A stretch of 64,000 nt of DNA. Source: Eledone cirrhosa. Its lineage: Eukaryota. The DNA lies in the NCBI GenBank assembly GCA_964016885.1, contig OZ024740.1, positions 109,554,001-109,618,000 on the forward strand. Reading direction: 5' to 3'. Of this stretch, positions 4,871-64,000 are shown piece after piece. The position numbers and the translations under genes were made by a program. The notes below the pieces were generated by a model. It saw only the letters and a list, made by a program, of their open reading frames with translations, was not told the DNA's origin and did not search any database. The number at the start of each line of letters is the position of its first letter. Position 1 is the first letter of the stretch.

Positions 4871-6560
4871 TCAGATGTGTGACACCCGGATATGGCTTTT
4901 CAAGCCTGTTAGTAGAGACTTGCACTCCTTCGCACACAGACAACTATAGATCTCCCTAGCCTGAGGTCTTCCATAAGGTTGCCCATGAACCCTCACAACA
5001 CCATGGAGATCATAGTTCACTGGTTCTCTTCGAACATGGTTGCGACTGTGGCTCCTGAGACCAGATTTGCTCAAGCAAATTTTTCCACACTCAGGGCACA
5101 CCAATTCAATGAAGACACTGTTCATTTCGAGAGATACACCAGGGCATTGCTTATGCACATCCCGTTTGATCTTCTTGTGCTCTATGCCTCTGTCCTCAAA
5201 ATTATGGACCCCACCATTCCATGCCAAGTTTCTTTTTCAAGAGCTTCTATCTCCCAGTCAGCCATCATCAAACCAGTTTTTTTCAATGAGTCCTTTACAC
5301 AAACCTTGAATCGGAGCCTTGGCTTGTAAAGTGGTCTCTTACCTTCACAAAGCTCGCCATACAAAAGTTGTTTTGGGATTCGATCATCCTCCATTCTGTA
5401 GCGGTGTCCAGTCCATTGCAAACACCGTTGGTCGATGATACTCTCAATGCTCCAACACTCACTTCTCTCAAGGACCTCAACATCACTCATGCATCTGCCA
5501 CTTGATACCGGCATCTTTCTGAGACACTGCTGGTGAAATCGTTCCAATCTTTGGATATGCCGTTTGTAGGCAACCCATGTCTTACATGCATACAGCAAAT
5601 CTGACAGTACACATGCAGCATACACTCTCACCTTGGTCCTCATTGTGATTCCTCACCTGTACCAAAGATGGTTACTGACCCTTCCAAATGACTCATTTAC
5701 CTTACTAACACGTAGACCAACTTCTGCATCCAGAGAGCAGGTCACACTCAGAGTACTCCCCAAATACACAAATCTGTCAGCAACCTGCAGCTTTTGACTG
5801 TATACGTATATGGAGGGTTCATTGAAAACTTTATACGGAGTATGTTGGTACATGATGACAGTCTTCTTCAGACTGATTGTCAGTCCCAAAGCACTGCACG
5901 TATTGGAAAAAGAGTCCATAAGGTGTTGCATGTCACTCTGGGAGTGTGCAAAGAGATCACAATCATCTGCATACAGAAATTCTCTGATCGAGGTATTCAG
6001 TACCTTAGTGTTGGCAGTGAGACGCCTGAGGTTAAACAGCTTGCCGGAAGTGCGATATCTGAGATAGATACCATGTTGACAATCCTTGAAGTCCATGAAC
6101 ACCACCATTGCGAAATACAAGGCAAAGAAAATTGGTGCAGGTATATCACCTTGCTTGACACCATTTTCAACTGAGATTGGCTCAGACAATTTACCTCCAA
6201 TATTTACCCATGCTTGCATATCATCATGGAAGAGTTTCAGTATGTTCACAAACTTTTCAGGACAGCCCAATCTCTCCAAAATAACCCACAAAGCCTTCCA
6301 ATTAACGGGTGTCAAATGCTTTGGTCAGATCAACAAAAACTTGGTATAAGTCCATGCGCTGCCTGCTAAATGCATTTCTCTTGAAGTTGTTTGGCTGAGA
6401 AGACCATGTCAACTGTGCCTTTGCCATTCCTAAAACCACATTGGGACTCAGGAAGTACCTCAATAGCAATGTGCTGTATCGGTCTGTCTAACAAAATCTT
6501 GCACAAGATCTTCCAGCCACAGATAGCAGTGAAATACCTCTGTAGTTGCCACAATCATCT
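4871..6560 (-). mobile_element. RTE/BovB-like LINE, degraded RT through C-terminal C2H2 zinc finger
   Basis: Frameshifted ORFs show LPESQCGFR, GVKQGD, YRTSGKLFNLRRL, LYADD, FVYLGS, RIPKQLLYGEL and CPECGKICLSKSGLRSHSRNH. Confidence 0.92.
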
Positions 6561-10014: not shown

Positions 10015-10900
10015 CTATTCAACAGAATTCGTAAAATAATCGGCTTGTATCTCCACAACCTCGGCAGGCAGAATGGAGAAGCCGTTTCCCCGGAGGATGG
10101 CAAGGGAGACGCGCTGGAAAAGCCACTCCAACTCGCGGGGCTCACACCTGCGGATGGCCAGCTCAGCGCCTATGGTAGTGAGTAGGGAGGTAGCCCTAGG
10201 GCCGAGGACACCAGAAGTCTCCACTGCCAAGAGTACAACCGCAAACTTCTCGGGGAGCGACAGGTATTTGAGGAATTTGGTCTACTCAGCCCGACTCGCA
10301 GACTGCATCAGGTTGTGCCTGCAGAAAGTGTCGGTGCAAGTGGCATCCCAGACGAGGGGTTTGCCACTGCGGAACGGGAAAATGGTCATGCCATCTGGCC
10401 TTTTGCTGTCCCCTCGATCCAGCCCCACCGGCTCGAGCTGGGAAGGGAAGCCTGCAGCGTCCAAGCCATGCTTTATCAGCTCATTGAGGGCAGCATGGCA
10501 TAGAAGGCAGCCGGCACTGTGGCGACAGGAAAGCAGGTGGAGGCCGAAAGAGTCCATGGTGGATCCACAGCGACATTGATGTGGCTCGCAGATCCGGATG
10601 CCGAGCCTCAAGGAAACGCCGAGGCGCAGGCTATTGTTGTCTAGCTGCGTGCCAGTGGAGAAGGAGGGCAGGGCATGGAGCCAGGCAGCACTGTGAGGTT
10701 TGGAGGCTGCATGAAAACAGGCAAGGCGGTGCTGGTCGAGCTGGCGCGTGAGCCTGTCTGAAGCATTGGACGGCATCCCAAGTGCTTGGGGGGGGGGGGG
10801 TTGACGTCAGCAGGGGGAGAAGGAGGAGGGACATCTACTGAGCTAAGTACCAGCCGGTCCCACGTCTCATAGGCAGCCTCACATTCTCTGAATACAAAGG
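10015..10900 (-). mobile_element. CRE-like non-LTR retrotransposon 3' part (zinc knuckle plus restriction-like endonuclease)
   Basis: CEPHQCRCG...HLLSC, KRPDGMTIFPFRSGKPLVWDATCTDT, AVETSGVLG and FQRVSLAILRGN are RLE-type PD-(D/E)xK features. Confidence 0.85.
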
Positions 10901-15367: not shown

Positions 15368-15480
15368 AATAATTGTTTCTACTTTTGGCACAAGGCCAGC
15401 AATTATCCCAATGTATTACTGCTACTTTATTTTATCGACCCCGTAAGGATGAAAGGCAAAGTTAACCTCGGCGGGATTCA
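15368..15480 (+). mobile_element. SINE-like repeat fragment (TTTATCGACCCC..GGATGAAAGGCAAAGT family)
   Basis: An inverted partner lies at 15618-15725. Further copies are near 49545-49620 and 62255-62330. Confidence 0.75.
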
Positions 15481-15617
15481 GGGCAGTTTGAATTAATGGT
15501 AAGATCTGTGTGGGTGGTAAAGGCCCAAAGGATTGTTATTCCTGCAGTTTCAGTTAGTGATTGTGGTGTGTGTTCATGCCAGTTTTCTGTATGTTCTGTA
15601 TTATATTTTTGGCCATT

Positions 15618-15725
15618 CTGAGGTTAACTTTGCCTTTCATCCTTACAGGGTCGATAAAATAAAGTACCAGTAATGCACTGGATAATTGCTGGCCTTGTGC
15701 CTTGTGCCAAAAGTAGAAACAATTA
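15618..15725 (-). mobile_element. SINE-like repeat fragment, inverted relative to 15368-15480
   Basis: Reverse-complement match over ~100 bp, with a small extra ggcacaa duplication. Confidence 0.75.
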
Positions 15726-20290: not shown

Positions 20291-21400
20291 TTACACAAGC
20301 TTATCAAAAGCATACAAGTAAAAACAAATAACACTTATAAAGCAACTTATACACGTCTGAAATGACTGGATTTCCTGGATTTGCGGTTGTAATCCAGGTC
20401 GCATTCCCACACTAGCCCCCAGATATAGTCCCCCCATCATTTTTTCATTGTAGTGGCCCTGGTACCTCCGCTCTATCTCTTTCACATCTTGGTGGAATCG
20501 TTCGCCTTGTTCTTCTGAGTAGGCGCCCATATTGTCCTTGAATTTTTCCAGGTGAGCGTCCAGGATATGGAGTTTAAGTGACATCCTGCATCCCATGGCG
20601 CCAAAAGCCTTTATCAGATCCTGCACCAGTTGCTGGTAGTTTTCAGCTCTGTAGTTGCCCAGGAAGCCCTTAAAAACTGCCTTGAAACAGTTCCATGCTG
20701 TTCTCTCAATCCTATTGAGCTTATTGGAAAACTCGGTAGACTCAAACACCTTCTTTATCTGAGGTCCAACAAAAATTCCACCTTTGATTTTGGCCTCAGA
20801 TAACTTGGGGAAGAACTCAAGAAGGTACTTAAAAGCGGCTGATTCTTGGTTGACAGCCTTCACAGACTGCTTCATCAACCCCAACTTAATGTCCAGTGGC
20901 GGCATGAGCACAATCCTGGGATCAACCAGTGGCTCCCACATGACGTTCCGGGTCCCAACTACAAATTCTGTTCGCTGCTCCCAGTTCTTTCTTTTGTCGT
21001 GGTCAGAGGTGGCTCTGCTGTCCCAAAGGCAGAGGAAGCATTGGAATTTGATAAAGTATCTTTGGAGTCCAAGCAGGAAAGCCACCATCTTGAAGTCTTC
21101 AATGATTTCCCAATTGTACTGGTTGTATTGCAGAGCTTCCAAGAGGACTTTCACACTGTAGTAATCTTCCTTCAGGCACACTGAATGAGCTAGGGGTAGT
21201 GTCGGGAATTTTTTTCCATTGTGGAGGAGGACAGCCTTCAAACTTGTGGTGGAGCTGTCTATAAACGGCACCCCAATAACGTCAAACAGTCCAGGCACGT
21301 CATGGCAGAAGCAGAGGCCATACCAAAGAGTGTAAAAGCCTGAGAAAGGTTCGCGTCGACTTCTCTTGTCACCTGCACTTCTTCCTTGACCAAGTCCCAC
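20291..21400 (-). CDS. Chapaev3-like transposase (N-terminally truncated, probably inactive)
   Basis: FIDSS..SLKAVLLHNG, CFLCLWDSRA, PPLxIKLGLMKQ, KLSEAKIKGGIFVGPQI, MSLKLH and SEEQGERFHQD. The C-terminus is frameshifted after ERRYQG. Confidence 0.85.
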   Translation of the reverse strand: MGLGQGRSAGDKRSRREPFSGFYTLWYGLCFCHDVPGLFDVIGVPFIDSSTTSLKAVLLHNGKKFPTLPLAHSVCLKEDYYSVKVLLEALQYNQYNWEIIEDFKMVAFLLGLQRYFIKFQCFLCLWDSRATSDHDKRKNWEQRTEFVVGTRNVMWEPLVDPRIVLMPPLDIKLGLMKQSVKAVNQESAAFKYLLEFFPKLSEAKIKGGIFVGPQIKKVFESTEFSNKLNRIERTAWNCFKAVFKGFLGNYRAENYQQLVQDLIKAFGAMGCRMSLKLHILDAHLEKFKDNMGAYSEEQGERFHQDVKEIERRYQGHYNEKMMGGLYLGASVGMRPGLQPQIQEIQSFQTCISCFISVICFYLYAFDKLV

Positions 21401-21981
21401 TGCTTCATCCTGGAGACGAATGCTTAAAACACAACTTACCCTTTATTCAGGGTGCTAAAATCCAGTGTCAATAAATCTCTTTAATCCACTTTTTAATAAT
21501 TTTATACTTTATTGCACTTTTATAATTTTCTTAGGTATTACTCTTTATTTTATAATTTTAATTTAACCTGAAACATATATAAAAAAAATCATTTAACATA
21601 AGCAAATTAAACTTACATACAACGTAAAATCCAGCATACAAATAATTCTAGTGAATAGCTTAGAATTTTTACAAACCCAAACTTTTAACTGTTTAATAGC
21701 ACTTTTTTATTTATTTGGGACCTAAGCAACACAAAAAAAGTGATTACAAGCCAGGAACAGATAATTTTTTTTTTGTTATTAGGTGTAATTAACCTTGTTA
21801 ATGTCACATCCATTCCTATTCACCTCTAAACTCTTTGGTTATATCTTGTGCAACAAACCCTCGAAATGTCTATAATTAGGAACAACTACATCATCAATAT
21901 ACCTACAACATCCACCCAACTGCCCTAATTCTGTTCTCTTAAGCTTCCTTAAACCCTATGTATATCTATATATGCATATAT

Positions 21982-22791: not shown

Positions 22792-23700
22792 TCCGAATTA
22801 GTGTGGTATAGACAAGTACATATGTTGTTGAGGTGTATAATATTGTCAATACTCTGATATGCCCAGTTCCTGGTTGGGTTGTTATTTCACTGAGGAACTG
22901 GAATCATGAATTCAAACAAACGAATTTCAGTGTCAAAGGGCCTCTTCTCCTCTCATTGGTCAGTTGTTAGAACATTCCTCATTCTAAGTGTTGTTATTGT
23001 TGGAGTTAGCTTAAAAAATTGATAAAGTGGTAGAAGGGACAAGGTGTTAAAGGAACAAAATAACAAAAAAAGTGTCAAACTTCTCATTGGTCAGCTCTGA
23101 GAGCATTCCTCAGTCAGAAGTCTATAGAATTCTTTCTGTAGTGTTTGTGTTTGCTATTGTTAAGTACATTTGACCTCTACCATTATTTTGGTAGTGTTGT
23201 TGGTGTTGTGGTCAGCTTATGTCTTGCTTTTGTTGACAATTTAGAAGTATCTGTGTGTGTTTTTTCTTCATCTCTCCTGCCACCATCTCTCATAGTGGTG
23301 GTGGTGGTGGGGGGGGGGGGTTCTTCCATGTATATGAAGAAATATAGGGCAATAAATGAAGAAAACAGAAAATAAATAATATAATTTGTATAATTTGAAA
23401 ATAGAGAATAAAGAATAAAGAATAAATGAAAAATTGGTGAAAAAGTAATGAAAATGAATATGGAGAAGTGAAAAATAAAATGAAGATTCAAATAAAGTAG
23501 GATAAAGTGTGTGTGTGCTATAACCAATCTCAAGGTTAGAAATATGTTGGATAGATTGGTATGAGGAAACAAGATGTTAAAATAAGATAATCAAACAAAA
23601 TGTGTTTGTGTAATAATCAATCTCAACTTAAAAATAAATATAAGGTGATACAGTGAAGAGGGCAGAAAACAAATAACAAATTAATAAAGAGAAATCAGGA

Positions 23701-24447
23701 GCACTTGATAAATGCTTCCCGAGGGACCACAGATACCACAGGATCTTCAACAGACACACTGTGAAGCTCTCGTATTCCACCACGAGAGATCTGGCCCAAC
23801 ATATAGCTAGCATCAACAGGAGTAGGCTTAAAAACCACACACAACCAGAAGATGGCAATACAAACACTCAGCAGAACCATGTGAAAGGAGGGAAGGGGGG
23901 ATCCAGAGCCCACCCAAGAAACCCAAACAGACCCGGGGACCCCTCACCGTGCCTGGGGGAAGACCAATATGTAACTCATAATGGAAACCCTAATCTAGGC
24001 ACGCAGAGGTCGACCACCCTCTGCAACTGCAGAAACTCCGAATCATGCCCCCTTGGTAATGAATGCCTCAAGAAGAACCTAGTATACGGTTGTAGGGTTA
24101 AAACCCCCAACTCCGAACACCTCTACATAGGAGCCACATCAACGAGCTTTAAAGACTGCTGGTACAACCATTGCCATTCATTCAATAAGGAGGCCAAAAG
24201 GAAAAGCACGGCTCTCTCCGACCTGATCTGGAAGCTTAAGCTGGAGAGAACCCCGTACTCTCTGGCCTGGTACATAATCAGGAAAGTACCACCCGATAAA
24301 GGGGGATCTTGCATATGCAAACTATGCCTGAACGAGACCCTCGAGATACTAAGAGGTGGAAGCGGCCTGATAAACCTCAGAACCGACTTCTTCGGGACAT
24401 GCAGACACCTGAGAGCCGGGACCTTCCTTAAGATATATGGACAGTAG
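23701..24447 (+). CDS. Penelope-like ORF C-terminus (linker plus GIY-YIG endonuclease), 5'-truncated
   Basis: Open from the inversion junction: ALDKCFP..HRIFNRHTVKLSYS, CNCRNSESCPLGNECL, LVY..LYIG, FKDCWYNH, CKLCLNE and CRH. Confidence 0.88.
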   Translation, partial: ALDKCFPRDHRYHRIFNRHTVKLSYSTTRDLAQHIASINRSRLKNHTQPEDGNTNTQQNHVKGGKGGSRAHPRNPNRPGDPSPCLGEDQYVTHNGNPNLGTQRSTTLCNCRNSESCPLGNECLKKNLVYGCRVKTPNSEHLYIGATSTSFKDCWYNHCHSFNKEAKRKSTALSDLIWKLKLERTPYSLAWYIIRKVPPDKGGSCICKLCLNETLEILRGGSGLINLRTDFFGTCRHLRAGTFLKIYGQ

Positions 24448-38588: not shown

Positions 38589-39385
38589 TGATGATGATGG
38601 CTGCAACTCGATTTCAAATAATGCCATCGATTGATACTTAAGCATGAGCATCACGGATGTGGCTTTTTAGTCCTCTTGCCTATGGCCAGCAATACCATGC
38701 ATCACAAAAAATGTCACATTTCAAGCGATGCCTGTGCTTGAAATCTTTTCAAATTAGGAAAGGCTTTGCATAGGGCCAATCCCACTCTCTGAACATTGAA
38801 TGCATTTTCTCCAAAAAGAACTGGTCCACATCATTGGATCCAAATGAAGTCACAGGTTTTGTGTATCAGAGTGACCTTCCCCTAGAGAGAGATGTCTTAA
38901 TGAAGACTAGGAGTCTCTTGCTCCACAAAATAAAAAAAATAAATACATATATATATATATACACACACAGTTGGTCTATACACACACACATTAAAGATCG
39001 TGGGTGTTGATCTTTCTCCTCCCACTTAGCCATAAAAATAAATGTAAGAATGTGAAGAAATAACAAAAATCAGATTTGTAATATCAAATTTTAATAGACT
39101 AATATTTTTTAAAAATAATTAATCTTTATTATAAAACTTATAAAATATGAATTATCAGCTTTGAATGAATAAAATTTACTATGGTTTAGTTACTAGGGTT
39201 TTGAGCTAAAGATCATAAGGTTATAAGATTGATCCCAGGACCAAGATAAGCATTATGTCCTTTAGTAAAGCATATTACATGTTACTACAGTTCACTCAGC
39301 AGAAAATAAAAGTAGCTACTTTAGCTGCTACCTAACTCGTCCCATGGACTGAGTGCTCTACCACTACAGATATTAACTAGTTAGG

Positions 39386-39532
39386 TAGAAGTGGTTACAC
39401 AACAGTTAGTTCACCATACCGAGAACAATTGTTTCACCTTAGCGGATCCTCAGCTAGTACCATTACGAGCTGAGGATCCGCTAAGGTGAAACAATTGTTC
39501 TCGGTATGGTGAACTAACTGATGTGTAACCAC

Positions 39533-39537
<5 letters not shown>
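39386..39537. repeat. Palindromic mini-element with 70-bp arms
   Basis: Arms 39386-39455 and 39468-39537 with one mismatch and a 12-nt loop. Abuts (TA)n. Confidence 0.95.
39459..39510 (+). ncRNA. Minimal type I hammerhead ribozyme
   Basis: Stem I ACCATTACGAG/CTCGGTATGGT; CTGAGGA; T-CC-GCTAA-GG-T; GAAAC-AATT-GT-T. Predicted GUU cleavage after 39499. Stem III is self-complementary (ACAATTGT). Confidence 0.85.
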
Positions 39538-39569
<32 letters not shown>

Positions 39570-42053
39570 TATTCCATAGAATCTGAAGTAGTTAGATTTA
39601 AATATCAATGAAACCACTGGTAAATCTAACTGGATATATATATATCGGAAAAGCTTTTTTCTTAGAGCTATTTAATTGTAAGAGACTACCCTGAGTTCTT
39701 AACTCAATATATATTTGTTGGCTCCATCATGTAGTTAAATTTTGTCCTGTCAGCCAGGCTGCTATTTTTAGCGGCAGGGAATTTCGAGACAAGCTGGGTT
39801 CCGAATGATACGTGCGATAATTCATATCGTACACAATTCATTCTCTAATTATTTTTAGAAGTGAAAGGATCACTAATTTCTCAACACCTACCGAGGAGCA
39901 GAGAAACGTGAGAACTTCACTTAATAAGTCGTGGCGAAACAGTCTCCAACACTGTCTAGTTGTTACCAGGCATTTTTGCCCAATAAAGGTCTGTTATTTT
40001 TCTTAATTTTCTTAATTTAATATTTAAAGTGAAGGATAACATTCTATATTGCTGTAGTTAGTATTTTATCACCCTAGCAAATTTTGGTCCTTACAATTCG
40101 AACACATGTATGTTTATATTAGTGTTCATCTCTCTTGTTTATTCAATTATATATATAGTAATTAGCTATATATCAAAGGTTAAATATTTTCAAAGTATAG
40201 CAGACCAATTATACTTAAATTTTCCTACTAATCAATGATTCTTGTTTTTGCTTTATTTTTTTTTCTTTAGTTAAATGTCTTTTTTAAGAAATTCATTCAT
40301 TTAAGAAATGAAAATTGATTGAATTTTTAAAACTGTAAGGGCTTTTTTTTATCAAATCAAATTCAATTTTCAGGCCCTTTTTTTTCATTACATTTTAAAA
40401 TTTCAACTTAAAAAAAGCAGAAGTCTTTTTTTATAAACTCAAATTGAATAAATCTCTCAAACTAAAATTCAGATAATAAACTGAATTTCATTTTTACTGA
40501 TTGAATTTCATTTTTACTGAAGTAAATAAAAAGAAAATCGAATTCCAGACTTTAATAAAATAATTCAATTTTTTTTTTCATTTCTGATTCTAATTTATGA
40601 AAATATGGCAGTTTTTGAAATTTCAAAATAAACATGAAAAAAAATTGAATTTCCATATATTACAGATCTTAAAAAAAAAAAAAAAATATTAAGGAGGAAG
40701 TTTGGTGATAAAGCTGATATTTCATTTAAAAATCATGTATTATTATTGCTGTTCTAATGGCTTAAATGATATTTGTTAGTTTTGCATTGTTGTTATTACT
40801 ATTTATTACAATTATTAATATTTCTACTGTTTTCCCTTTACTTGATGTAAACCCCACTCTGTGTTGTTTTCCCTTCTTTTAATGTCTCTTTATCTTGGGC
40901 CTTTGTGGCCAATAAAAGAAATTATTATTATTAAGGTTTTTTTATCCTAGCTCCTTGAAATTGTGTGAAATACACATGATTATAATAGTAATTGTTAACA
41001 CTGTTGTATCTATTGGTATCCAATCTTGTCATTTCCAACATAATTTCTCAAAGTAAAAGAAATCAAACTTTGTTTTCCATTTAATTCTGGTTTCTACAAA
41101 ATTATCATGAGTTCTCTGGAAAATAATGTAGGAAATAAGATACTGAAATTGAAAACCCAATCCAGATATTTACGTTGTTGATGTAATATGCCAGCGTTAG
41201 TTTTTATCAAGCATCATTCCTATTCAGTTTGCCATAATGTATTCAAGTCTTGCTATCCGAGGTTTCCACAAGGCTGTCAAAATTCAGCGATATAATAGGA
41301 ATGTTGTTGGATATTTCCAATCAATAACACTGGTTGTTTGATCAACCAAAGACGTGTGTATATATCTGAAAAGAAAAAAAAAAATGTTTATAAACCATCA
41401 TCCCCATGATGATATCTGCTTTCCATGGTAGCATGAATTACACAGGTCATCACGGTCTGAGTCAGTTGATATTTGGAGTTACAGCCCTCCTAAATTCTAT
41501 TGTTGAATGACCCCTTTTTATTGCCACCTCTGTCACAGAATGTATTGGGTGTATTTTATCATAACAATGACACTAGGTAGGTTTTCCCTTCAGTAAGACT
41601 AAGAGCTCTCTCTACTCTGTTGTCTCAGTTTGGTAGATAGATACTGTAGAAGTGCCTTTAAGGGACCATTCCTGTTCTTGCATGGCAGACCTAATCTAAT
41701 GCTTAGTTTAACACTGCCAGCTGGCCCTTGAATTGCTTTAACAGAGTCTGATTTGAAAATAACATCCTTTTGTTTTGCAAGTTGTTGAGTCTCTGAAAAA
41801 AGGGTTATAGGTGCTGCCTTTTCTCAACTGACTGACATTAAAAAAAACAAAATAAAATGACGGAAGTTGAAGATCTCTTAAGAACCTGGCTAGGACAACA
41901 TAGAGACATTATACCCAACGGCCTGGCTCTAACAATATAAAGATATATATATATAATAATAATAATAGTAATAAATTTGAAGACTAAAATCCAAATAGGG
42001 CTCGATAAGGATAAATATATATCAGATATATAAGAACCGTAGAGCAAATATTT

Positions 42054-42186
42054 ATTAAAATAACAGATTAAAGTTTAAGCAAAGAATCGCTGCTTTCACT
42101 CTTAACGGGATCTTCTGAAACTCAGAAGATCCCGTTAAGGGTGAAAGCAGCGATTCTTTGCTTAAACTTTAATCTGTTATTTTAAT
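42054..42186. repeat. Palindromic mini-element with variant hammerhead core
   Basis: Arms 42054-42118 and 42122-42186 with one mismatch. CAGAAGA-T-CCC-GTTAA-GGG-T-GAAA starts at 42123. An unpaired tail extends left to (TA)n at ~41945. Confidence 0.9.
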
Positions 42187-45100
42187 CATCATCATCATCA
42201 TCATCATCAACGTTTAACGTCCGTGTTCCACGCTTGCATGGGTTTGGACGGGGGTAGTCCCACTTGAGGCAAGAGTGATTGTCTTGCTCGCATAGGACTG
42301 TCTGGCAGGTTTTCTACAGTTGGATGCCCTTCCTAACACCAACCACATTTACAGTGTGGGTCTGGGAGGTTTTTACCGTGTTGCCTACACGGCCACATTA
42401 CAGCGTGGACTGTGTGTTTTTTTGTCGTGACACCTACACGATCTCATTTGTTTCGGCCTCGATGGCGCGGCACCAACATAACTTTACATAGAACGGGGTG
42501 GTGTGGATGGGGTGGGGGTGGGACGGGGTGTATTTTGTTAGAGATGCCTACTGGCTGGAGTAGGTTTTACTATATATTTAGGTAAGGCGGGTCTTCTCTG
42601 TTACTGAGTACCGCCAAAGGTCTCGGTCCAGTGACATTGTCTTGGAGAGGTGTAAGTGTGTGATGTCGGAGTTTATCAGTTCGTCCCAGGTTTTTCTAGG
42701 TCTGCCTATTCCGTGACTACCGTCTATCTTTATTGCCCTGCACTTTGTTATACAGCTATCGACTTTCATGCGCATCACGTGTCCATACCAATGTAGCCTT
42801 CTCTCGAGTAAACAACATCTGATCCCTCTTATCTCTAATTTTTTCCTTAGTTCGTTTATGCTTTGCCGTTCACGTATATTACTGTTACACATCCAGCGGA
42901 GCATGCAAGCTTCGTTCCTCTCTAGTCTGCGTATATCCTCTGCACACAATGCCCAGGTCTCACTGCCATGCAGCATTGCTGTTCGTATGCAGGCATCGTA
43001 CAACCTGCCTTTCATTTTTAGGGAGAACCCTTTAGCAGCTAATAGTGGTATAAGCTCTCTGAACTTTTTCCAACCAGTTCTGACTCTAGCTAGTACTTTC
43101 AGAGCACCCTCCCCCACTGCTGATTTTATCGCCCAGGTAACGGAAGCTGTCCACTATTTCTATAGAACCCTCTGCGCAATTGAAAGAGCTAGTATTTTGT
43201 GGGCACTTGCTGCTACTTATTGCACCAGAACACCGGCCACATGTAAAATCTATGTTCTTAGTTAGCTTACCTGTGATCCCACTACATCTTTTATGCACCC
43301 ATACTTTGCATTTAGGACATAAAATGGAGTTTCTACCTACGCCTTTCCTACACACCGAGCACGACCATTTCCCAGAAGGGACCGCCGCCTTGTTTTCTTT
43401 CCTACAAACTAGTACTTTGGTCTTAGCCAGGTTAATTTTAAGTCCTTTTGACTCTAGGCCGTGCTTCCATGTTTGGAATTTCTTCTCTAGCTCGGCCATT
43501 GATTCCGCTATGAGTGTCAGGTCGTCTGCGTATAGGAGTTCCCATGGGCAGCCTGTCTTGAACTCCTCTGTTATAGCCTGAAGGGCAATAATAAATAGTA
43601 GGGGGCTGAGAACAGAGCCCTGATGGACGCCAACTTTTACGCTAAACTCTTCACTATATTCGTTGTTAATTCTAACCTTGCTGACTGTTTCTTTATACAT
43701 GGCTTGTATAGCCCTCACAAGCCATTCGTCAACGCCTAGTTTTCTAAGAGCCCACCAGATAATGGAGCGGGGGACTCTGTCGAAGGCTTTCTCCAAGTCG
43801 ACAAAAGCTAAGTAGAGGGGTTTACCTTTAGCTAGGTACTTCTCCTGTAGTTGTCGTACTATGAAAAGAACATCTGTGGTACTTTTGCCTGACACAAACC
43901 CGAACTGCATTTCATCTAGGTCAATTCTCTCTCTGATTAGTTGCGCTATTACTTTTGCCGTGACCTTCATGACCTGGTCGATTAATTTAATGCCTCTATA
44001 GTTACTCCTATCTAGGGCGTCTCCTTTACCCTTATAACAGTTAACGATGATGCTGCTATGCCAGTCCTTCGGAACAACCCCATTCTGTACGACTTGGTTA
44101 ACTATGCGGGTGACCATGGTGTGTCCCACCGTGCCAGATGCCTTCAGCATCTCAGCAACTATTTCTGAAGGCCCAGCCGCCTTACCCGTCTTCATATCCT
44201 TGATTGCCTTACTTATTATACTCCCCTCGACTAACACTGCTGGTCCCTCTATTGGGTCGATATGGGGGAGACTGTCTTTCTCCCATTTATTCTCCTCATT
44301 TAGTAGCCTTTCATAGTGACACTTCCAAGCTACCTTCTTATCAGCGTCGGTGATGGCAAGTGTGCCATCGTCGTTTAGTACACACTTCTCCCCGACAATA
44401 TCACGGTTTTCCTTGACGCATTGCCTAGCAATCCTGAACACCTCACGTTTTTGGTCATCGCGTTGTAGAACATGCTTGAACTTTCTTTCCTCAGCTTCCC
44501 TTCTTGCTAAGTACACTTGTCTCCTAGCTTCCCTCCTGGCCACTTGATAGTCTTCTCTACTTCCCCCATCCCGCCATACTTTCCAAGCCTGCTTTTTGGC
44601 CTTAATTGACCCCTCCACCTTACTGTTCCACCACCATGTTACTCTCCTCCTGCCTACAGGCCTGCTCCAGCCACAGACTTCGTCTGTCGCCAACAGCAGG
44701 TTTGCTTTCAGAAATTCCCACTCTCCCTCTATATTGTCCGACTCTAAATGTTCTTCCTTACTGTCGAAAGCATCAAGTAATATGCTTTGAAATTTATTCC
44801 TGGCTGTGGGGTCCTTTAGCTTCCATATTTTTCTCCTGAGGATAGTCCTCTTTTGTTGTCGAGTACGTCTCGTCCTGACTATGAGGTCGCTAATTATCAG
44901 TCTATGTTGGGAGGTGCATTCTTCATGGGGGAGGGATTTAGTGTTTACAACAGACACTCTGTCACGTCTTCTGGTAAGGATATAATCTACCTGGCTTGTG
45001 TGTTCCCCGGATCTATAGGTGATCAGGTGATTGTCACGTTTTTTGAAGTTAGTGTTACAGATAGTTAGGTTATTTGCATCACAGAATTCCAGGATTCTGG

Positions 45101-45205
45101 AGCCTTCCTCATTTCTAGTACCAAACCCATAGCCTCCATGGATTTCGTCGTAGCCGTCACAATGTTGACCAACGTGACCGTTTAGGTCGCCTGCGATAAT
45201 TATAT
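42187..45205 (-). mobile_element. Young RTE LINE, 5'-truncated (APE C-half, RT, PHD insert, 3' UTR, (GAT)n tail)
   Basis: ORF 43086-45205 has GDLNGHVG, QVDYIL, SQHRL, FVDLEKAFDRV, QGSVLSP and YADD. It continues in 42578-43117 after a single 2-bp deletion near 43093. Confidence 0.97.
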
Positions 45206-45624
45206 AGTTAATATATATATATATATATACACACACACATATTGAAATTACTGAAACTCTCAAAATAGAATATTTTACTCATTTATAATTTGATATTTTT
45301 CATATAGTATAGTTTAATAAAAGAAGATTTCACTCCACCCCTCTCTCTCACCACCTTTCCATAAAGAGGTGACATAAAAATTCAGCATTTGCTGCTGTTG
45401 CCATCCCTCTCTCTCTCTATTGAACATATATTCTTACTATTCCTTTTCCACAGCTGGGCCACATTTTTACACTACAACTCTCAAAAATAAAAAAGAAATT
45501 TACAATTTTTATTCACATATTTTAAAAATAACGAATAAAAAGAAAAGGAAGAAATTTGAATAGTGGAAGTAAAGGAAAGTGAAGGAGGAATCGACCCTCT
45601 ACACCCAGATTCAAGCAGTATGTC

Positions 45625-52112: not shown

Positions 52113-52318
52113 GTGAGTCCTGGGTTCAATCGGGGGTAACCACAGTAAGTAAGGTACTCAATACATTAGTAGAGTATATACAGCAAAATTTAATATAGAA
52201 ATGGCTTCTACAAGACTAGAACTGTTTCATTTGAAGGAAATCATTAGGAAAGCTTTTCTGATGATTTCCTTCGAATGAAACAGTTCTAGTCCTGTAGAAG
52301 CCATTTCTATATTAAATT
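52113..52318 (-). mobile_element. Palindromic hammerhead mini-element, copy 1
   Basis: Arms 52187-52252 and 52253-52318, plus a 75-bp unpaired tail matching 60898-60970 in reverse. (TA)n lies next to the tail. Confidence 0.9.
52252..52301 (+). ncRNA. Type I hammerhead ribozyme
   Basis: GCTTTT/GAAGC stem I; CTGATGA; T-TTC-CTTC-GAA-T; GAA-ACAG-TTCTAGTC-CTGT-A. Predicted GUA cleavage after 52296. Confidence 0.8.
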
Positions 52319-59275: not shown

Positions 59276-60759
59276 GGAGATGAGACTGTTTGCTTTGCTT
59301 TTCATCCTTTTGAAGTCAAAATAATAAAATACCAGTTGTAGTTTAGGGAGTCTATTCTTTCTCTATCTCTCCTTTAAAAAAACCCCATTTGTTTTCTAAT
59401 CCAAAGCTCAGTAACTATGCATAGATGGATAGGTTGCTGTATCATTCTCATAATTGTAAAGCTTTCAGAAGACATTCAGAGATGAATAGGTAGAAATCTA
59501 CACTATGCTGACCCATGATCTAAGCGTTTCAGCCATAACCACCCACTCTTATTTTCAAACAATATATCCTTAATTACACTTACTAATGTGTCCCGCCTTT
59601 TTATGATGGTACAGTGATTTGAGATGAATTAGGCTGATATTTTTAGCAGTTCAAGTGACTATACAAAGACTTGCTATCATTGTTTTTGTTATAGTTTCTC
59701 TCATTAGAAACTAGATTTTGTTGTTTAGCCCTAGGTCGGTCCTGATCAAGCCTAATTCAAAGATGTTCAAGTTAAGATCATCATGTCTTTTGCTTAGTCA
59801 TAGTGTATCCAGGACTACATTAATTAATGCACCCTCCCTATTTTATGATAGTAAAGTGTAATTTAAGGGAGAGTCATATGCAACTATTTTTAGCAGGTTG
59901 AGTGACCATGTAAAGGCTCTATTGTTGTCTCAGTTAAAAACTAATGTTTATATGTGTGTAAGAAAGAGAGCAGAATGTTTCTGTGTTGTAGATGGAGAGA
60001 AAGTAAGATATGTATATATTCCATATACCGTATATTCTCGTCTATACGTTACACAGGTAGATAAGCTGCACTTCCATTTTACATACACTATTTACAATCA
60101 ACATCATCATATACCTGTTTTCCCTATATATTTTGAATTAGGGTTTTGTAAATCCAGCAGATTTGTTGCATGCTGGTATTTCACATATCTGTGAAAGGTG
60201 TGTAACTTATACGCAAGTACGTACAGCATAACACACACACACATATATATATGAGAGCAGGTGGGGGTAGCATGTTTCCTTGTTGTAGCTGAGAAGAGCA
60301 TGAAAGATAAGTATAGGTAGGTAGATAGACAGATAGATGTAGGTAGCTTGATACACTAACATAAATGGGTGAAGCTATATAGACAGACAGATAACTAGAC
60401 AAAGAAGGAAGGGGTGGATGGATGGATGGATGGATGGATGGATAGTGTTTCTGTTTGGTAGTTGAGAGAGAGAGAGAGAATTTTATGATGAAAAATTGAG
60501 GAAGGTTGTATGTGAAGCTAGAGACAGAAACAGATCAATAACCTATAACATAGCTACTAAATACAGTAGCTTCTAACATGTGGTGGAGAGAGAGAGAGAG
60601 AGAGATGTAGGAACAGGTACTCAATCCTGTTGCTGGCCTTTTCTTTTACACATTCACACACACATAACAGTCCAACTCATGCCAGCATGGAAAACACATA
60701 AAATGATGATGGTATGTGTATATGCATGGAAATATGCATGAGTTTGTGTGTGTGTGTGT

Positions 60760-60970
60760 GTATAACAAAATTTAATATAGAAATGACTTCTACAGGACTA
60801 GAACTGTTTCATTCGAAGGAAATCGACAGGGCTTTACTGATGATTTTCTTCGAATCAAACAGTTCTAGTCCTGTAGAAGCCATTTCTATATTAAATATTG
60901 TTGTATACCGTCTACTAATGTATTGAGTACCTTACTTACTGTGGTTACCCCCGATTGAACCTGGGACTCA
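60760..60970 (+). mobile_element. Palindromic hammerhead mini-element, copy 2
   Basis: Same family as 52113-52318 in the opposite orientation. The plus-arm core is CTGATGA..CAAAC and the minus-arm core is CTGTCGA..GAAAC. Flanked by (TG)n and (CA)n(TA)n. Confidence 0.9.
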
Positions 60971-63814: not shown

Positions 63815-64000
63815 AAGGTGCATGGCTTAGTGGTTAGAGCATTGGGCTTGCAATTGAAAGGTTGTGAGTTCAATTCTCAGACTGGGTGATGTGTTGTTTC
63901 CTTGAGCAAGACACTTTATTTCACATTGCTCCAGTTTACTCAGCTGTAGAAATGAGATGATTGGACTGGAAAGTGGTCGTGGAGGTGCCACGGCAAAAAA
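63815..64000 (+). mobile_element. tRNA-derived SINE, running off the window end
   Basis: Near-identical head to 38400-38545, followed by the start of the RTE-type tail. Confidence 0.88.

Follow-up and report, generated by a model that had tools for sequence, protein, structure and literature searches.

Among Penelope-like retroelements (PLEs), the Hydra clade as described by Craig et al. 2021 (PMC8557442) comes closest to the locus reported here. In that account, units are shorter than 3 kb, carry a reverse transcriptase (RT) with a C-terminal GIY-YIG and target (TA)n. The pseudo-LTR holds a hammerhead; of the 25 Hydra-clade hammerheads listed, 14 have U flanks on stem II and 10 a U at N17 (our hand count). 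The protein marks given for the clade are RW[KR], DKT, a CxCX5C linker, CxxC and CxH around E and N, and no CCHH. The same paper describes partial tandems with an inverted copy as a PLE layout, and PLE copies that are inverted, truncated and tailed on one side. Our family resembles the clade in unit size, domain order, target, pseudo-LTR hammerhead, the U flanks and frequent U at N17, and in its inverted 5'-truncated copies (there, Penelope-13_HM). It differs in stem II (2 bp, against at least 3 in the Hydra motifs listed) and in its tail (~70 nt, against 30-40 nt). The octopus element Hydra-1_Obim of the same paper is a different family, with another stem II, stem III and stem I.

The minimal dimeric type I hammerheads described from metazoan PLEs by Cervera and de la Pena 2014 (PMC4209133) are alike in the full core, the palindromic helix III, the short helix I and an extra base after A9. 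Most of the motifs described there lie in truncated copies, and opposite-strand pairs 100-700 bp apart occur, again as in our family. In contrast to them, our family lacks the G10.1-C11.1 pair, and its helix II is far shorter than the 7-8 bp given for Schistosoma. Published descriptions of minimal PLE hammerheads report weak cleavage, as multimers.

The Poseidon element PAc of the green anole (Frangieh et al. 2024, PMC11167929) belongs to another clade, and its ORF starts inside the hammerhead. It shares with our family two 3' ends that differ by the tail, an AT-rich target and the lack of any sign that cut RNA serves as template. According to the in vitro experiments in that paper, two RT start sites bound the tail, both target strands are cut and extended, uncut RNA is the main template and a dimer is predicted; the hammerhead was dispensable for insertion, and cut only once the element's protein was added. 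The PAc start sites were the same for both strands in those experiments, whereas the inverted insertions of our family use one each. Penelopes of Adineta vaga (Arkhipova et al. 2013, PMC3846280) likewise show head-to-head inverted pseudo-LTRs, one of them tailed, with junction palindromes; their copy number is low, and the passages on these junctions draw no link to a ribozyme stem. Non-LTR retrozymes, as portrayed in a preprint (bioRxiv 10.64898/2026.07.22.740005), and hammerhead viroids have a type I hammerhead and a rod fold that excludes the ribozyme. The hairpin studied here has both, but no tandem units, no sign of a circle and no propagation as a unit.

We analysed this hairpin within 64,000 nt of the Eledone cirrhosa genome (contig OZ024740.1, 109,554,001 to 109,618,000; "the window"). 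We consider it highly probable that it consists of two 5'-truncated 3' ends of one PLE, lying head to head at a TA repeat and likely the product of a single insertion, with the hammerhead as a passenger predicted to be shut.

Results and Discussion

A truncated Penelope-like element at a TA repeat

Of the 70 positions at which the two arms (39386-39455 and 39468-39537) face each other, 69 pair; the exception is A39402 opposite A39521. Of the 12 nt between them, 3 pair further and leave a 4-nt loop as RNA. An earlier note made from the letters of this DNA had recorded 70-bp arms with one mismatch and a 12-nt loop, and this description holds. The hairpin it placed at 39386..39537 is real, but the element extends left to 39328 (Table 1).

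Table 1. Features of the insertion, in window coordinates.
Feature	Position	Strand	Remarks
Piece of the element's 70-nt tail	39328..39375	+	Sense, opposite in orientation to the left arm; matches the tail of locus L047 at 92.6%
Left arm: inverted 5'-truncated copy of the element's 3' end, continuing into the start of the tail	39379..39455	-	
Junction bases, 3 nt, not native upstream element sequence	39456..39458	.	From column counts
Native element sequence upstream of the core; remaining stem I 5' strand	39459..39469	+	Native copy extends further upstream
Hammerhead core C3-A9 (CUGAGGA)	39470..39476	+	N7 is G or A by subfamily
Stem II: U, two C-G pairs with a 5-nt loop, U	39477..39487	+	U flanks as in published Hydra-clade hammerheads
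G12-A15.1 and palindromic stem III (2 bp + AAUU as monomer)	39488..39499	+	Predicted cleavage after U39499
Stem I 3' strand	39500..39510	+	
Remainder of the right arm, to the family's short 3' end	39511..39537	+	
(TA)15 microsatellite, the family's usual insertion target	39536..39565	.	Same flank at most loci inspected

The first 10 nt of the tail piece are an inverted repeat of 39379-39388, and contig depth changes from ~10 to over 100,000 at position 39328. Between these 10-bp repeats the left-arm tail (39328-39388) is flipped, and the joint carries a small palindrome. The flip could stem from a third template switch during insertion or from a later inversion.

In a search of the animal's own genome (3.0 Gb), the best 40 of 241 candidates were 97-100% identical. 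The 35-nt core has 3,107 exact matches genome-wide and its reversed control none, so the motif is not a chance occurrence; a 22-nt anchor 3' of the core has 6,905. Upstream, longer copies pass in sense orientation into a broken frame whose RT and GIY-YIG motifs end ~175 nt ahead of the core. With a 205-aa piece of the protein, the best 150 of 66,619 candidates matched at 85-100%. The family includes partial tandems and inverted 5'-truncated copies, and the hammerhead lies in the pseudo-LTR. At one locus (L047) an inverted copy precedes a partial tandem whose cores are 2,495 nt apart, which gives a unit below 3 kb with a single frame for RT and C-terminal GIY-YIG.

Open stretches reach 628 aa and contain YRDDG and GIY-YIG-like motifs. 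The frame also carries LRWR, SDKT (DKT instead of DKG), a CxCX5C linker (CSCRKPEAC), CGLC..E and CPH, with no cysteine pair (CCHH) in the stretch from GIY to YIG. Among 120 database homologs the RW motif occurs in 97, DK[TS] in 115 and DKG in none; the linker and the CxxC/CxH features occur in 114, 115 and 116, and over all the Hydra-clade motifs the counts range from 97 to 119. Searched with the element's own 628-aa frame, Pfam returned no family and the PDB no solved structure. One homolog (P0002) matches PF01541, and the RT/GIY-YIG assignment rests on the motifs together with this GIY-YIG match. Judged by its sequence, 39459-39537 is the 3' end of a PLE with Hydra-clade marks, for which a published entry may already exist. 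The window copy lies at (TA)15, and most arm ends inspected by eye likewise lie at TA. Non-LTR retrozymes have head-to-tail hammerhead units; here we find a single inverted pair in a family that is coding.

A minimal hammerhead with a probably shortened stem I

The plus strand reads CUGAGGA (39470-39476), GAAA (39488-39491), the palindrome ACAATTGT (39491-39498) and a GUU site ending at 39499. All elements of a minimal type I core (C3-A9, G12-A15.1, U16.1, H17) are present. The G10.1-C11.1 pair that opens stem II is absent, with U...U in its place. The order CTGAGGA, short stem II, GAAAC-AATT-GTT given in the earlier note is therefore right and the conserved core bases are all intact, but stem II has only 2 bp between two U's, and the palindrome measures 10 nt in all, A14 and U17 included. 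The minus strand of the antisense arm has the same core with 2 bp of stem I, again as the note had it. Its assignment to the PLE-type minimal hammerheads with self-complementary stem III also agrees with our results, the need for a dimer being a prediction.

This prediction comes from folding calculations. In the monomer, stem III has a probability of 0.03, and two strands fold together at -36.2 kcal/mol, against 2 x -14.2 kcal/mol apart, with stems I swapped and stem III intermolecular. In the same two-strand fold A14 is paired with U17 and G12 is drawn into another stem II, and given these contacts the dimer's hammerhead activity may be low.

The note had the hairpin loop supply most of the 5' strand of stem I. 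In that register 9 of 11 positions pair (4 bp, a 2x2 loop, 5 bp), and 9 of the 11 bases of the 5' strand do come from the loop. As a design the idea is not supported, as the loop is plain upstream element sequence. Across 31 arms from loci picked by protein match, the stem I 3' strand pairs at six positions in 30-31 of 31 arms with a strand 6 nt further upstream, one of the six pairs alternating between A-U and G-U; the note's register pairs at three positions in 0, 19 and 2 of the same 31. Within the window's own subfamily the shorter register is predicted to be lower in energy (-7.9 vs -4.3 kcal/mol). The native stem I likely includes a 6-nt bulge and a distal helix. The upstream strand whose pairing is best across the family is missing from the window copy, and with it this likely native helix, so that calling the copy's hammerhead "complete" is doubtful. 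"Best-preserved" is doubtful as well: the hairpin of another family in the window has a complete core at 52258 with a U-flanked 3-bp stem II, a 4-bp stem III and a GUA site.

Subfamilies, compared in 28 arms, differ at N7 (15 G, 13 A), in loop 2 (18 T, 10 G) and in the upstream stem I region, and core positions are altered in at most 3 of the 28. Selection may act on the motif in source elements, for which these sequences give weak support. The A at 39521 was considered as a subfamily marker and rejected, as 0 of 28 protein-selected arms have A there. Rfam matched no hammerhead family, either at the gathering threshold over the whole window or at E up to 10 over 39300-39620. A match to MIR6217 lay below threshold and reflects generic long-hairpin similarity.

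Two 3' ends, probably one insertion

Head-to-head arms are the rule in this family. Matches in genome order (30, less 3 repeats) gave 27 distinct loci, 19 of which have a divergent partner arm (sought within the 1.5 kb fetched per locus; loci L059 and L081 are multi-part). The window hairpin is the shortest form of this usual shape.

The element ends at one of two 3' positions, the short end (39537) or one ~70 nt further. Among 79 loci we found 52 pairs: 44 long with short, 1 short with short, 1 long with long and 6 with one cut end, the window copy being counted among these last. Thus 44 of the 46 pairs with two clean ends join a long-tail arm to a short-end arm, where one half would be expected (P ~1.5e-11). 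In the window copy the left arm is of the long kind and continues to 39379, beyond which comes the flipped 48-nt piece of tail, and the right arm stops at the short end in (TA)15.

The route that we think probable is an insertion primed twice, in which both target strands are cut, one cDNA is made from each start site and the free ends are joined. The element's protein would cut both strands. Reverse transcription would be primed twice, one cDNA starting at the long-tail site and the other at the short-end site, which lies 70 nt upstream. Each would stop within ~80 nt, and their free ends would be joined, often via short complementarity. The in vitro findings on PAc permit such a scheme. Any cutting by the pseudo-LTR hammerhead of the parent element would take a dimer or help from the protein. 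Arms in genome order (L055-L084) are very short: of 29, 10 extend no more than 16 nt upstream of C3 and 18 no more than 50 nt, as if reverse transcription often ended just after crossing the ribozyme.

Alternatively, the second arm could have come from the same element by snap-back of one cDNA, the uneven loop resulting from a small later deletion at the tip. We regard this as unlikely, though it is a fair rival for the origin of the second arm, if not for the identity of the element. It agrees with 14 perfectly palindromic loci, all of which turn at one CCATTACG point, and with 41 that are perfect palindromes centred on stem III; moreover, self-priming has been proposed for inverted PLE junctions (PMC3846280, in its treatment of these). 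The reach of the arms is informative here. Among 38 simple pairs, 15 are about equal, which snap-back explains equally well, and 2 more belong with them. In 12 the long-tail arm reaches further upstream than the short-end arm. In the remaining 9 the short-end arm lies more than 15 nt further upstream and, because of this reach, was not copied from the long-tail arm. As either arm may reach further, neither is always a copy of the other. Against snap-back, then, each arm often carries what the other lacks, the tail on one side and extra upstream sequence on the other. The window copy is a case in point: its left arm lacks 39459-39467 and its right arm the tail, an unequal reach in the same direction as in the 9 pairs, on a small scale.

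At three subfamily sites the two arms of an insertion match in 32, 35 and 32 of 36 pairs, where random pairing would give 0.58, 0.70 and 0.80. This agreement suits snap-back, and places both arms in the same source lineage; one template, two sister templates or later conversion would all fit.

The loop at 39459-39467 is native upstream element sequence, with 3 junction bases only. The window junction has 1 match in the genome, even when up to 1 mismatch is allowed, and because it occurs once the hairpin is not propagated as a unit. A MITE-like element would have the same arms and the same inside; here the junctions vary between loci and the window's is unique.

Junctions do recur at one point of the ribozyme. 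Among the first 50 of 104 tight hairpins, 18 have the exact spacer that centres on stem III, where 1.6 are expected (P ~1e-14). A hotspot at the start of stem I, hinted at by the best genome matches, proved modest (the 14 loci above). We see no pile-up of 5' ends at the cleavage site: of 76 truncated arms, a few of which are internal deletions, 8 start at 39499-39501 against 10.9 expected, and 2 at 39500. These 76 are the first 100 of 666 arms without G12/A13 in register, minus 23 that keep the core and 1 duplicate. The in vitro PLE study, as far as its published account goes (PMC11167929), agrees with the long/short rule, with the stem III hotspot and with the missing pile-up at the cleavage site, and these give countable predictions for it.

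The stem III palindrome could itself be a pairing signal for insertion: a dimeric RT-endonuclease would prime both strands, each at a different one of the start sites, which lie 70 nt apart, and the palindrome would hold the templates or nascent cDNAs together, much like the retroviral dimer link. We offer this as a speculation, somewhat less likely still than snap-back. If true, it would explain both the one-long-one-short rule and the junction hotspot, and would give PLE hammerheads a role without any need for cleavage. The literature covered, which leaves most subscription papers outside, held no printed link between PLE inversion junctions and the hammerhead. The one-sided tail and the junction palindromes have already been described qualitatively; the long/short rule and the stem III hotspot are worth noting.

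Why the hairpin persists and what its RNA would do

Another possibility is that the hairpin is retained as a source of 70-bp duplex RNA for silencing of the family by small RNAs. The duplex is near-perfect, and small RNAs from PLE copies were reported in a rotifer (PMC3846280, in the part concerned with such copies). But near-identity is expected of any young insertion, and nothing singles out the window copy among hundreds of similar hairpins; we hold this explanation to be very improbable.

Even less credit can be given, if by a small step, to the functional switch proposed in the earlier note, in which a transcript would be either an inert rod or an active ribozyme. The intact core, the 9 possible stem I pairs on the plus strand and the lower energy of the shorter register in the window's subfamily all speak for it. 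The folding predictions do not. For RNA of 39386-39537 the rod comes to -130.8 kcal/mol and the best fold that holds the hammerhead to -53.3, a gap of 77.5 kcal/mol. The note had proposed that the two folds be compared; run as an energy prediction, the comparison went to the rod, with an ensemble probability of 0.000 for every hammerhead helix. In a growing plus-strand transcript the core is predicted to be paired as soon as it emerges. The arms are divergent, so transcription of either strand reaches the antisense arm before the ribozyme. A viroid's ribozyme can fold while its complement is still to be synthesised; in the hairpin the order is the other way round. Together with the unique junction and the lost upstream strand, these points tell against a switch. 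Neither mark of a viroid-like RNA was found, that is, a ribozyme fold accessible in the full RNA or propagation of that RNA as a unit. We found no clear host gene or evident promoter in the window, only repeat-derived frames.

The hairpin is thus predicted to be a trap for the hammerhead and not a switch, with the ribozyme shut in read-through RNA, and it is likely an ordinary insertion leftover. The note had named a lack of Mg-dependent cleavage of the short construct, as monomer or dimer, as the result that would overturn its reading. This test is too weak because the PLE hammerhead assayed in the experiments described in PMC11167929 needed the element's protein.

Long palindromes are a known class of artefact, and among the listed contigs from three runs of one sample, which cover the element, none bridges the loop, yet an assembly or long-read fold-back error is scarcely credible given that the unequal arms obey the family-wide long/short rule and that in three runs of one sample the left junction is carried by a single contig with 0 differences.

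As one among thousands of fragments, the window locus matters little alone. The family, in turn, is young and large enough for the mechanism of PLE insertion to be read from the genome. It also calls for caution: "viroid-like" hammerhead rods in animal genomes can be ordinary products of PLE insertion.

Neighbouring repeats

A second hammerhead repeat family is represented in the window by hairpins at 52187-52318, which contains the complete core at 52258, and 60758-60908, with matches in 14 and 12 of 84 loci. In its copies loop 2 varies freely and stem I appears by eye to covary. A third family (hairpin 42054-42186, in 7 of 84 loci) has a hammerhead-like layout with a U-flanked 3-bp stem II and a longer stem III; every copy covering that part reads CAGAAGA (U4 to A), and the hairpin is possibly a core variant or a dead ribozyme.

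Further remnants of PLE-like frames lie at 23677-24444 (+), 32199-31680 (-) and 30170-29811 (-) and are 27-38% identical to the family protein. The frames 43089-45278, 5185-6324, 10285-10806 and 20294-21442 (all -) resemble what we take to be remnants of LINEs or other transposons. At 15408-15681, 62-bp inverted arms belong to a very common repeat (27 of 84 loci) in which our scans found no hammerhead; it is likely a SINE- or MITE-type element. Finally, a marginal tRNA match at 63821-63884 (+; 29.7 bits, threshold 29) is likely the tRNA-derived head of a SINE.
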